64,000 bases of DNA from Eledone cirrhosa (Eukaryota), in contig OZ024748.1 in NCBI GenBank assembly GCA_964016885.1, positions 2,604,001 to 2,668,000 of the forward strand. The letters run 5' to 3'. Positions 21,541 to 46,759 of this stretch are shown piece after piece; within the stretch, counting starts at the first letter, position 1, and every line of letters begins with the position of its first letter. Below the pieces are notes generated by a model that saw only the letters and a program-made list of their open reading frames with translations, did no database searches and was not told the origin of the DNA. The translations under genes and the position numbers were made by a program.

Positions 21541-22225
21541 TACATAGAAGGCAGTGAATTTATAGAGTTGTTAGAGCATCGAATCAAGAACGCTACTTCG
21601 GTTTTTGTTCCGGGTCTCGTCACCGTGAGTTCAAATCCCACAGAGTCGAACAATAAAGTAGCAGTCCAGTATTGGCCCATATTCTTCTAACTATCCTTAT
21701 AACTCTCTCTCTCTCTATTTCTTTCTACCTAGAGAATAAATCGGCTGTTACGATATATATATATATATATATATATATATATATATATATATATATATAT
21801 ATATATATATATATATATATATATATATATATATATATATATATATATATATATAGAGAGAGAGAGAGAGATAGTAACAGCCGATTTCTTATATATATAT
21901 ATAATAATAATAAAGTACGTGTTCCTATTTGTAAAGAATACACACAGGGATACAAGTATTATCCAACCGTATGCCAATATGGTTCTATGACAGGTTAATA
22001 AATGAACGAGCCAGAACATATAAAATCAAGGTTTAGTAAATAGAGAAAAAGTTTTAAAATAAATTTTAAAAAGTTCGCTGGACTTACTATATGTACCTTA
22101 TATATATATATATATATATATATATATATAAAGGTTAACATATACATAAAGTTATAGATATATATATGTTGCAACTGGTCACTTTTAAGCTCTATGAAGA
22201 ATTAATAAATTAAAAAATCAGACCA

Positions 22226-22347
22226 ATATATCATAAATCATGTCTTTCGAATCATCAGATAAAATATATACTATTTCTTCTTCTAATTAGAAGAAGAAAT
22301 AGTATATATTTTATCTGATGATTCTAAAGACATGATTTATGATATAT
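22226..22347. repeat. Spacerless palindrome (61-bp arms) with hammerhead-like cores
   Basis: Centre ctaa|ttag at 22286/22287; one mismatch; CTGATGA-TTC-(G/T)AAA on each arm reading outward. Confidence 0.85.
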
Positions 22348-22403
22348 ATATATATATATATATATATATATATATATATATATATATATCACACACTTCT
22401 CAC

Positions 22404-22434
22404 CTGAAGAAGGGCTTATGCCCGAAACGTCGTC
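22404..22434 (+). ncRNA. Minimal hammerhead ribozyme core (PLE-type)
   Basis: CTGAAGA-A-GGGC-ttat-GCCC-GAAAC-gtc-GTC; AATAAA at 22469-22474; the 22390-22520 fragment lies between (TA)n tracts; no clear stem I. Confidence 0.65.
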
Positions 22435-22782
22435 CCCCACCTACCCCCACTCTCCTGAGCGTGAATTTAATAAACATTTATTGTACTGCCTCTCTGTTCT
22501 GTCCCTGTTCAATTTTTCATTATATATATATATATATATATATATATATATCGACGATCGATCGACTTTCGTCAAATCGGACCGAGGAATCGGTGTTTCC
22601 GTTAGTCTTTCTAATTGGTAATACTCTCTATCAGTCGCAACCTCCAGGTAGAAGGATACAACGCATCACTCGGCCCGGGAATCGAACTCACAACAATTCA
22701 ATTCTCTAACCACTTAGCCCTATATATATATATATATATATATATATATATATATATATATATAGACTACAGTTCGATAACT

Positions 22783-23070
22783 TTATCTGATTGAGAAGCG
22801 AAATAAATACAATGAACAAACAAATAAAAATCAATGTAGCTTTTGTTTGTTTTCTATTTCACACACACACACACACACACACACACACACACACACTATC
22901 TGATTGAGAAGCGAAATAAATACAATGAACAAACAAATAAAAATCAATGTAGCTTTTGTTTGTTTTCTATTTCACACACACACACACACACACACACACA
23001 CACACACACACACACACACACACACACACACACACACACACACACATACACACACACACACACACACACA
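22783..23070. repeat. Tandem duplication of about 78 bp, each copy followed by (CA)n
   Basis: tatctgattgagaagcgaaataaatacaatgaac...ctatttc occurs twice. Confidence 0.85.
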
Positions 23071-23260
23071 CAGATATAGATATATATATATATATCGGGG
23101 CCTATAAAATAAAATAAAATAAAATAAAAAAATGGATAGATGGAAAAGGGTTGGAAACCCATAAGATGGACTGTACCTGTAATTCAAAGGGCCAGCCTTG
23201 TTACACACCGTGTTAAATTGATTTTCCCTGAGAATCACGTTTATATATATATATATATAT

Positions 23261-23692
23261 AACAGAGTTTTGTAGGTTGCTTGAAGCATTGTTTAATAGG
23301 AAACACAGATTTAAATTGTGAAGACCAACACAATGTGTTATGAAGAATGTTAAATTGCCAACATAACAAATCATCTTACCATAGCAAGGTTAACGATCCC
23401 AAATATGTTCGGGTTTAAAAACCCATCATCAAGGGAGTAACCCTACTAGAGACTTAAAAATCGATCGGTTAGACTTGTTTGTATGGGATCGATTTTTAAG
23501 TCTCTAATAGGGTTACTCCCTTGATGATGGGTTTTTAAACCCGAACATATTTGGGATCGTTAACCTTGCTATGGTAAGATGATTTGTTATGTTGGCAATT
23601 TAACATTCTTCATAACACATTGTGTTGGTCTTCACAATTTAAATCTGTGTTTCCTATTAAACAATGCTTCAAGCAACCTACAAAACTCTGTT
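23261..23692. repeat. Long inverted repeat (206-bp arms, 20-bp spacer) in (TA)n
   Basis: Arms 23261-23466 and 23487-23692; one mismatch seen; variant hammerhead-like fold in each arm. Confidence 0.95.
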
Positions 23693-44500: not shown

Positions 44501-44971
44501 TATATATATATATATATATATATATATATATATATATATATATGTGTGTGTGTGTGAGCGTTACTCTATTCTAAGTATATGTGTATTTACGTTTTTGTGT
44601 GTGTTTGTATATATATATATATGTATGTATGTATATATATATGTATATATGTATATGTATAGAATTGAGTGTTACTCTACTTGAAGTATGTGTGCGTATT
44701 TACGTTTATGTATGGATATGTGCGTGTGTGTATATATGAGTGTTACTCAACTGTGAGTATGTGCATATGTTTGTGTATGTGTCTACGTTTGTGAATGTAT
44801 GTATATGTAGGTTTATGTGTGGATGTGTGTGACTATATATGTATACGTATATATGTGAGTGTTACCTACTGTATGAGCATGTGTGCGTGCGTACATGCAT
44901 GTATGTATGCATGTATGTATATATGCATGTATATACATATATACATGCATATATACATATATATATGTATG

Positions 44972-45460
44972 TTCTTCTGGTTTCAAAATGTTATATTTCC
45001 CAATAGAAATAGAGTCAGTCTCTAACTTAGACACAAGACTCTCTCATTGGAATGTAGACATCAACTAGGTAGATATGTCTGTCTGTCTGTATGTCTGCAT
45101 GTGTAGGTATGGATGTTATTGTATGTGTGGATGTGTATGTTTTGAGTTGTATATGTGCATGTGTATATGCTTTGTATCTGTACATGTGTATATGCAGTTA
45201 TTAGATGCAGAATATTTGGAATGTTTTACATATCTTTACTGTTCCATTAATGGATTGTACTTGTAATTTCCTAACTAGTTGTGTTCTTTCTGTTCCTGTG
45301 AAGCCCAGCTTCTTAAGATTTGTTACTGAGGCAGTTACTAACATATCCCAGTGCCCCAATAATCACAGGTATAAATCTGAAGGTGTAACCAGGGTGGAGT
45401 ATCTGTAGATTTCTCATTAGTTCTACATAGATATTCTCCTTTTCGCTAATCTTTAATATT
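44972..45460 (-). mobile_element. R4/Dong-type RLE LINE 3' end, same family as 19376-19821
   Basis: Reverse complement of the 19.4-kb copy (KENIYVELMRNLQILHPGYTFRFIPVIIGALG); ends gaagaa + cata. Confidence 0.75.
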
Positions 45461-46127
45461 AACAACAACAATAACAGCAATAATATTAGGAAAAATAATT
45501 TATTATTATCATAAAGGAAACAAAAAATGTATTGAATACATACATACACACATACACACATACACACATACACACATAGATACATATTCACAGACACACG
45601 CACATATATGTACTTATATATACACACATATGTATATACATACATACACATATCTATACATATACACAGACACACACATATATATATATGTATACACACA
45701 CACATATATATACATATATATACACACGCACATCACACATATATATATATATATACACACATATATATATATACATACACATATCTATACATATACACAA
45801 ACACACACACATATATATATATATATATACACATACATACATATATATATATATATATATATATATATATATATATATATATATATATATATATATATAT
45901 ATATATATATATATATATATATATATATATATATATATATATATATATATATATATATATATATATATATAAATATACATATATATATATTTAAAGGTTA
46001 AACAAGGTTCAATGAATAAATCAAAGAATGAGTTTTACAATAGATTGGAAGCACTCAACAGTATTAGTTTTCCGGAGTTATTATTAATTCAAAATATTAA
46101 CAAAATAGATATTCTTGTGATCAAGTA

Positions 46128-46194
46128 TATTTTATTATACATATTTCAGAGGTACTGAGTTAACTTCAACAGTACGTCCTCATCAGATAAAATA
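46128..46194 (-). ncRNA. Type I minimal hammerhead ribozyme (mirror copy)
   Basis: Exact reverse complement of 46294-46360. Confidence 0.7.
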
Positions 46195-46293
46195 AGATGA
46201 TGCATGACATACCCTGACATAGGAGATGGTTAAGATTCGGTCATGGTAGTAATCTTAACCATCTACTATGTCAGGGTATGTCATGCATCATCT

Positions 46294-46360
46294 TATTTTA
46301 TCTGATGAGGACGTACTGTTGAAGTTAACTCAGTACCTCTGAAATATGTATAATAAAATA
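46294..46360 (+). ncRNA. Type I minimal hammerhead ribozyme
   Basis: Stem I TATTTTAT/ATAAAATA; CTGATGA 46302-46308; stem II GGACGTACTG/CAGTACCTCT; GAAA 46341-46344; self-complementary stem III ATATGTAT; predicted AUA cleavage after 46352. Confidence 0.7.
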
Positions 46361-46445
46361 TACTTGATCACAAGAATATCTATTTTGTTAATATTTTGAA
46401 TTATATATATATATATATATATATATATATATATATATATATATA

Positions 46446-46759
46446 GATTTTGAGTTTATGTTGGTTGTATACCAACACCTCAGTATGCAGGCTGGAGCAC
46501 TCGACGAAGTGCGCAGGTTGGTTTGGTTACTCCGGAGTAGTGTAAAATAAAGTTAAATAAAAGTCAAATGATTAAAATTTAGCTTCGTTTATTACTGCTA
46601 TATATATTTCAGTGACAGCCATCTTTGGCTGTGACCTCTTCAGGTAAAAAGGTCACACCTGAAGAGGTCACAGCCAAAGATGGCTGTCACTGAAATATAT
46701 ATAGCAGTAATAAACGAAGCTAAATTTTAATCATTTGACTTTTATTTAACTTTATTTTA
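46446..46759. mobile_element. Second fold-back element with outward-facing hammerhead cores
   Basis: Perfect 103-bp arms 46543-46645 / 46657-46759; CTGAAGA-GGTCACAGCCA-aaga-TGGCTGTCACT-GAAATATATATA then AATAAA; tail 46446-46542; (TA)n flanks. Confidence 0.85.

Follow-up and report, generated by a model that had tools for sequence, protein, structure and literature searches.

Why do near-perfect palindromes with hammerhead-type ribozyme cores facing away from their centres lie repeatedly in (TA)n tracts? This study addressed the question in a stretch of 64,000 nucleotides of Eledone cirrhosa (GenBank assembly GCA_964016885.1, contig OZ024748.1, positions 2,604,001 to 2,668,000, forward strand; hereafter the window), which is part of a 3.0-Gb assembly rich in microsatellites and contains five such palindromes, designated P1-P5 from left to right. 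The results revealed that P2, P3, P4, and P5 are terminal repeats (pLTRs) of Penelope-like elements (PLEs), with P3/P4 and P5 representing two families of the Hydra clade and P2 another PLE. P1-P5 do not form a new class, their structure being a footprint already known from PLEs. In each family, the 3' ends fall at two fixed positions, the proximal site 1 and the distal site 2, and the two arms of a pair typically carry one of each. The hairpins are probably 5'-truncated, head-to-head PLE insertions in (TA)n, in which both nicked target strands prime at their own fixed internal sites and the resulting complementary DNAs (cDNAs) are joined; the direct observations behind this proposal are the family identity, the two fixed 3' ends, their one-of-each pairing, target duplications, variable hairpin centres, and a (TC)n tail specific to P5. 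The origin of the inverted ends, tails, and microsatellite bias of PLEs is named as an open question in PMC8557442 and PMC11167929.

P1-P5 were the only tight hairpins in the window once simple repeats were masked, so the five palindromes were not cherry-picked. The arms lie at 22226-22285/22288-22347 in P1 (59/60 positions identical), 23258-23466/23487-23695 in P2 (208/209), 33509-33579/33600-33670 in P3 (69/71), 46082-46237/46251-46407 in P4 (155/156), and 46543-46645/46657-46759 in P5 (103/103). The arms are 97-100% identical and separated by 2-20 nt, and the palindromes reported in a preliminary description of this DNA are real. That description had also placed them in (TA)n, assigned them to at least four families, and noted an extra tail on one arm; every outer end of P1-P5 indeed adjoins (TA)n, the families number four because P3 and P4 belong to one, and a one-sided tail was seen in P1, P3, P4, and P5. 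No remnant of a PLE open reading frame (ORF) was found in the window.

The parent elements were identified at other loci. The P4 pLTR flanks a 4.54-kb unit encoding a reverse transcriptase (RT) and, C-terminally, a GIY-YIG domain at locus L031, where tandem P4 pLTRs recur at 4,540-bp spacing. The P5 repeat aligns with the P4 repeat and is linked to an RT/GIY-YIG ORF in L257, L259, and L296, and the P2 repeat is linked in L265 and L268 to an ORF of another PLE type, with an RT carrying YVDD and a GIY-YIG domain. Every ORF copy seen was broken. Pfam matched GIY-YIG (E=9e-7) and RVT_1 (E=2e-5) on the P2 pieces, and matches on pieces of the Hydra families (P3/P4, P5) were weak or absent. A pLTR with a hammerhead, partial tandem or inverted copies, and an optional tail, all features of PLEs, were found in P3/P4, P5, and P2. 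Linkage of the repeats to RT and GIY-YIG ORFs thus upheld the PLE origin suggested earlier; the accompanying label of tiny ORF-less insertions had to be given up, since all except P1 are truncated products of RT and GIY-YIG elements. A miniature inverted-repeat transposable element or fold-back DNA transposon was ruled out: the centres vary and the ends are asymmetric.

Neptune was our first guess for the clade of the Hydra-type families and was dropped once the motifs fitted Hydra. The translations contain RVRWR/KSDKT in L031 and RMRWK/HADKT in L296 (DKT replacing DKG), and the endonuclease (EN) translations of L031, L039, and L257 contain a CxCX5C linker, lack CCHH, and show CxxC and CxH close to conserved E and N residues. 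Compared by eye with section 11 of PMC8557442, these EN motifs, together with the RWK/RWR and DKT motifs, suggest that P3/P4 and P5 carry the Hydra-clade signature described there, and the C-terminal GIY-YIG without CCHH, the hammerhead, and the (TA)n insertion of that clade are also present here. Stretches of (TA)4+ followed 74/100 and 82/105 P4 ends and 39/46 P5 site-1 ends. Several differences from the published Hydra-clade elements were observed: the P3/P4 unit, at 4.54 kb, exceeds the size of generally <3 kb (in PMC8557442 a tendency rather than a diagnostic trait), the tail is 95-97 nt rather than the 30-40 bp given for PLEs, the beginning of the ORF lies downstream of the tail, and exact matches to the core words number about 9,800 and 8,500. 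The exact counts were 9,798 for P4 (whose word also picks up related subfamilies), 8,548 for P5, and 340 for P1; the P2 word had 138 matches versus 41 for a reversed control. In P2, CxxC within the GIY-YIG core and a Cys-rich linker were found in a single decayed copy, L268; the Neptune and Nematis features are a CX2-5CxxC linker plus CCHH. The P4 ORF also contains asparagine-rich stretches flanking the RT-EN boundary (L031:3769-4482, L032:1449-2897), which recall the N-rich inserts in A. vaga Penelopes (PMC3846280).

We then located the 3' ends by their position in the query arm. They fell at q155/q250 in P4, q114/q211 in P5, q171/q207 in P2, and q60/q153 in P1. Among divergent pairs in which both ends were classifiable, the arms were divided between site 1 and site 2 in 58/60 P4 pairs (71 pairs in all, 11 unclassifiable), 30/30 P5 pairs (40 pairs, 10 unclassifiable), and 11/13 P2 pairs (20 pairs, 7 unclassifiable), an end being unclassifiable in 28/131 pairs of these three families together. 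Many of the loci had been picked with tail-bearing queries and most loci lie on contig C1, a bias that counts against our interpretation; the pairing was therefore recounted in loci picked by the core 17-mer alone. One of each was again found in 36/38 classifiable P4 pairs (44 pairs) and in 20/20 classifiable P5 pairs of a fresh sample (21 divergent pairs, of which two resemble a segmental duplicate and one lies 3.5 kb apart). In P1, the count was 10/10 after removal of 5/15 rows whose apparent end was a read-through variant. These findings agree with the earlier proposal that both junctions of a hairpin are element 3' ends, and they specify two fixed ends per family and one of each per pair. 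The element RNA continues past site 1 and site 2, into the ORF for P4 and P5; both sites are therefore internal, as in the anole PLE, for which cleavage and extension of both strands, with two internal starts, were observed in vitro and which is predicted to act as a dimer (PMC11167929). The tail is probably the stretch between the two fixed start sites. In the window, the arms and associated features are as follows.

22133..22285, minus strand: long arm of P1, which stops at site 2, the distal site of a 658-bp tandem unit without an ORF; relic of a degenerate hammerhead
22288..22347, plus strand: short arm of P1, which stops at site 1, the proximal site
23260..23486, minus strand: P2 left arm, a canonical-type PLE pLTR ending at site 2; includes the 20-nt spacer, which is the element's own upstream sequence
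23487..23693, plus strand: right arm of P2, which like the left one stops at site 2 and so departs from the one-of-each rule; hammerhead of the U3-A8 type, in which both arms have the same two private changes
33509..33588, minus strand: P3 site-1 arm, of the Hydra-clade family common to P4; 3' half of the hammerhead only
33600..33761, plus strand: P3 site-2 arm, carrying a 95-nt tail
45992..46248, minus strand: P4 site-2 arm (pLTR and tail), reaching 5' to the clustered stop of the family; type I hammerhead, complete, with its core at 46186-46144
46251..46403, plus strand: P4 site-1 arm; complete type I hammerhead
46404..46445, no strand: (TA)n tract common to the P4 and P5 insertions
46446..46645, minus strand: P5 site-2 arm, of the second Hydra-clade family, with a 97-nt tail; cut inside stem I, core 46643-46607
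46646..46656, no strand: P5 junction insert, partly templated from the arm
46657..46759, plus strand: P5 site-1 arm, core 46659-46695

The pairing could also arise from a single priming at site 2, with the cDNA folding back on itself and the copy being trimmed at site 1 by the endonuclease or by annealing to the other TA end. This explanation gives arms from one source, and in 35 overlapping pairs the median arm-arm identity was 96.7% and the arms of one insertion never came from different subfamilies; moreover, the junctions often lie at short palindromes, and PMC8557442 ascribes the tail to endonuclease resolution. A fold-back copy must, however, lie inside the site-2 cDNA. The results revealed that the site-1 arm outreaches its site-2 partner by >10 nt on the 5' side in 39/99 pairs (the site-2 arm is further 5' in 25, the two are level in 24, and 11 run past the reference and are undecidable) and that the arms have no overlap at all in 16 pairs, some of them copies 95-100% like the reference. 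These pairs contradict a simple fold-back, which we consider improbable.

The hairpin centres differ from copy to copy, indicating that the hairpins are made anew at each insertion. This variability also bears on a proposal in PMC3846280, in which self-priming on an antisense transcript builds the head-to-head repeat before integration, and on the related notion that palindromic copies retrotranspose as units; the recurrence of one P2 junction in L055 speaks for an account of this kind. Neither version predicts one-of-each ends or non-overlapping arms, and with centres varying among copies we regard both as very unlikely. The least credible account is that the palindromes are fold-back chimeras of sequencing or assembly. 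In four public runs each on the P4-P5 and P2 stretches, no read or contig spanned a whole window hairpin and no empty allele was found, the runs not being established as from the same individual. Nevertheless, arms were no closer to each other than to the best other copy (97.2% for the same 35 pairs), which points to real ageing rather than read chimeras; the ends are site-specific and differ between the arms, insertions with target duplications occur, and joints of a left with a right arm, with other centres, are present in contigs from two other public runs (single contigs with short sides).

Informative target duplications were present at 8/94 insertions versus 1% in shuffled pairings, and staggered nicks therefore fit. 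The preliminary description had both ends of a break in the TA tract prime reverse transcription; priming from both target ends and joining at the centre were retained, and the plain break was replaced by staggered nicks. A search for empty sites through paralogous flanks matched 3/95 insertions, none of them informative. Among 49 junction rows (one duplicated), 17 showed an overlap, 3 were blunt, and 29 had an insert, the inserts being short and often templated. Arm starts fell within a single 16-17-nt window per family in 33/93 P4 and 17/49 P5 arms, also where the partner arm starts elsewhere; a TATA-like word lies upstream of the clustered start in P4 and is absent in P5. We interpret the clustering as run-off at the 5' end of the RNA. 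Duplicates of the terminal word, as expected from re-initiation, were present at 3/161 ends, which is too few to uphold the idea. In L085, L139, and L154, the flank holds a further copy of the element's final 9-14 nt with TA between, possibly reflecting aborted and restarted initiation.

On the basis of these findings, we favour priming from both target strands and propose the following course. The RT-endonuclease would nick both target strands, reverse transcription would be primed by each nick at a separate fixed site inside the element RNA, and the two cDNA ends would likely be joined by microhomology or short templated patches. The tail would then correspond to the interval between the two sites. 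The short palindromes would arise by priming in the 5' pLTR, with both cDNAs running off a common 5' stop, possibly the RNA start. At initiation, the RT may slip on the local template and write (TC)n or (A)n, which would later expand, and such a machine may mobilise P1 in trans. Because a CTCC word lies 5-12 nt after both sites in P4 and P5, the enzyme may act as a dimer, each protomer serving one site. This word was seen in the read-through copies L031 and L296, and also after site 2 of P1; the 25 nt past site 2 are conserved between P4 and P5. The CTCC words are candidate protein-binding marks. No shared RNA fold was evident in the tail regions of P4 and P5.

Several further observations weigh against this proposal. 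Both arms of the window's P2 end at site 2 and are 208/209 identical, the best other scored copy reaching 92%; this P2 may be a secondary fold-back or a homogenised copy. True singles made up about one in seven arms (approximately 20/129 in P4 and 4/36 in P5), with almost none having a tiny partner. Later asymmetric deletion of palindrome centres could explain some of the 39 pairs with a longer site-1 arm. Site-2 arms stopping at site 1 showed no clear excess (9-10/57 at q162-191, hand count), which lends no support to a single shared RNA template. Core matches on opposite strands were convergent in 2/34 close pairs and in 5 adjacencies of the fresh P5 set, and the inspected cases resemble neighbouring insertions.

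A stronger version, which we put forward tentatively and think may well be wrong, holds that integration of Hydra-clade PLEs is obligatorily two-ended: a dimer would sit on two CTCC-marked sites of one RNA, prime a sense cDNA from each target strand, and begin each by adding repeats in a telomerase-like manner on a 3-nt template. If this were true, the element could dispense with ordinary second-strand synthesis and would itself create and extend the microsatellites that later draw more copies.

The tails at P5 site 2 were relevant to repeat addition. The read-through template at this site is AAAATCTATCTAG (L296). A (TC)4+ run, counted with the element's last TC, lay between element and (TA)n at 14/56 P5 site-2 ends versus 0/320 other ends, and A runs were seen at a few ends; genome-wide, 455 P5 ends had (TC)4+ versus 810 with plain TA. 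The flank opposite the TC tail was TC-free in 23/23 paired loci (30 loci examined) and in 6/7 pairs of an earlier TC-tailed set, which points to telomerase-like slippage. The simplest reading is that the RT slips on the UCU patch at initiation, followed by later expansion, and stuttering of the enzyme likely produces a new TC repeat in the P5 family. For the TC tails alone, P5 might instead select existing (TA)(TC)(TA) tracts, or the run might grow later from the element's single terminal TC. The remaining earlier pair, L284, has TC on both sides, microsatellites expand readily in this genome, and later slippage can account for the greater part of a long TC run, all of which tell against new synthesis. 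We nevertheless hold selection or later growth to be unlikely: the opposite flank is TC-free in 29/30 paired loci overall, TA-TC-TA compounds numbered only 4 among 8,631 TA tract entries, and the tails are not limited to a single sequence variant of the P5 family.

We further investigated the hammerheads. The preliminary description placed a hammerhead-type core, or its 3' half, in all five palindromes, reading outward on both arms. The outward polarity was confirmed in all of P1-P5, but only P4 combines, in each arm, the core with stem II and a stem I of 8 bp. In its site-1 arm, stem I lies at 46294-46301/46353-46360 and the core at 46302-46344, with a self-complementary stem III and a predicted cut after 46352 (both read by hand). 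P5 has the core and stem II with both arms cut within stem I, and P3 has only the 3' half. The P2 family has the U3-A8 core variant described in PMC4209133, TTGATAA...GAAA being the commonest form (8/22 matches), and the window copy reads TTGATGA...GAAC. In the P1 family, TAAA occupies the GAAA position in 67/68 copies, stem II and G12 are lacking, and the GAAA in the window's left arm is a private change. Although the P4 motif is complete, free folding prediction of the P4 RNA did not yield a hammerhead. An Rfam scan of the window gave no hammerhead family among the 150 listed of 431 matches, those listed being microRNA models on simple repeats or hairpins, all under gathering scores.

The polarity is not confined to the window. 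When the P4 and P5 core 17-mers were located on contig C1, their first 100 listed matches included 32 divergent and 2 convergent pairs of opposite-strand neighbours up to 5 kb apart (p=3e-8), in line with the polarity predicted earlier. Outward polarity arises because 5'-truncated copies are joined head-to-head with the ribozyme just upstream of site 1. It needs no ribozyme function, and the ribozyme, mostly incomplete, is a passenger. For the AATAAA or ATTAAA previously noted after the core, a role as a poly(A) signal was rejected: at about 30% GC, such hexamers are expected by chance (an estimate), the P4 AATAAA is the 3' strand of stem I, and the element RNA continues into the ORF.

P1 differs from the other palindromes in being a piece of the 658-bp tandem unit, which has a longest frame of 51 codons and occurs in arrays. 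Its fixed ends lie 93 nt apart, and the distal end resembles that of P4; no homology between P1 and the P4 element was found beyond simple repeats. P1 resembles the non-LTR (long terminal repeat) retrozymes of bioRxiv 10.64898/2026.07.22.740005 in its ORF-less tandem unit of a few hundred bp with PLE-like ends, but it lacks G12 and stem II and therefore does not have the complete type I hammerhead per unit by which that paper defines them; there, the retrozymes are derived from pLTRs. A 30-kb array of the P1 unit with 34 listed core matches lies at C1:92,985,741-93,016,010 (L308-L331). It begins with two inverted units, and is thus a possible source array with a head-to-head start of its own.

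Inverted pLTRs were reported previously. PMC8557442 describes an inverted 5'-truncated copy, a one-sided tail, and a (TA)n bias; PMC3846280 notes the head-to-head form; and PMC4209133 reports opposite-strand minimal hammerheads 100-700 bp apart. The inverted pLTRs of Penelope, Naiad, and A. vaga PLEs (PMC8557442 Fig. 2, PMC3846280) share with the present hairpins the head-to-head truncated copy, the tail at one end, and the ribozyme in the repeat. The relevant passages of these three papers invoke self-priming or endonuclease resolution and give no end-pairing counts. Similar to the present families, Poseidon PAc (PMC11167929) has two internal RT starts that bound the tail, both strands are cut and extended, and the hammerhead is dispensable. 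However, its start is not homologous to the target, whereas the start sites here lie on TA-like patches and are paired one of each; the corresponding passages do not discuss inverted copies and leave the later steps unvalidated. Active Penelope-like families are reported in an octopus in PMC13282606, with no mention of a hammerhead or palindrome in the pertinent text.

Two other processes offer further comparison. In L1 twin priming, a second nick primes a second cDNA, yielding an inverted 5' part; the second site is variable and the arms do not overlap, whereas here the site is fixed and the arms often overlap, giving palindromes. The 3' repeats of some long interspersed elements (LINEs) are made by slippage, and telomerase adds repeats by copying a short template patch repeatedly at initiation; in contrast, the patch here lies within the RNA, and only one of the two start sites shows the repeat. 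For PLEs, neither the one-of-each rule nor twin priming nor repeats made by slippage came up in any paper of our literature search, which had older subscription papers outside its scope. As far as searched, the end-pairing counts and TC tails are new, and the inverted truncated copies, tails, and (TA)n targeting were already published. Palindromes as such are ordinary transposon debris. The one-of-each rule unites tail and inversion in one reaction and makes a sharp prediction for in vitro work. Repeat addition at initiation would functionally echo the kinship of PLE RT with telomerase and would be a source of new microsatellites, at least 455 (TC)n runs being found at the ends of one family in the genome.

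Other features were observed in the window. A single-armed element between two TA tracts (22391-22520) has a compact hammerhead-type core (CTGAAGA at 22404, 4-bp stem II, GAAAC) and is likely another PLE end; it had 10 matches among the fetched loci, at least 3 of them the window itself. A 77-bp direct duplication (22784-22860 and 22897-22973) has (CA)n after each copy. An abundant short repeat, probably a family resembling short interspersed elements (SINE-like), forms clusters in both orientations (12079-13600, 47561-48165, 2177-2358, 6619-6790, 21132-21314, 41624-41802), with 129-370 matches in the fetched loci. On the minus strand, a 105-aa frame at 40216-40533 has copies of 92-96% identity in L333, L346, and L347 and is presumably similar to the C-terminal end of a non-LTR retrotransposon ORF. 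Two copies of a 450-bp repeat (19375-19820 and 44973-45424), 90% identical, lie 25 kb apart in opposite orientation, and one of them begins with CTGATGA. Finally, a tandem array with a period of approximately 39 bp (62386-63775) has several frames open on both strands for approximately 400 codons.

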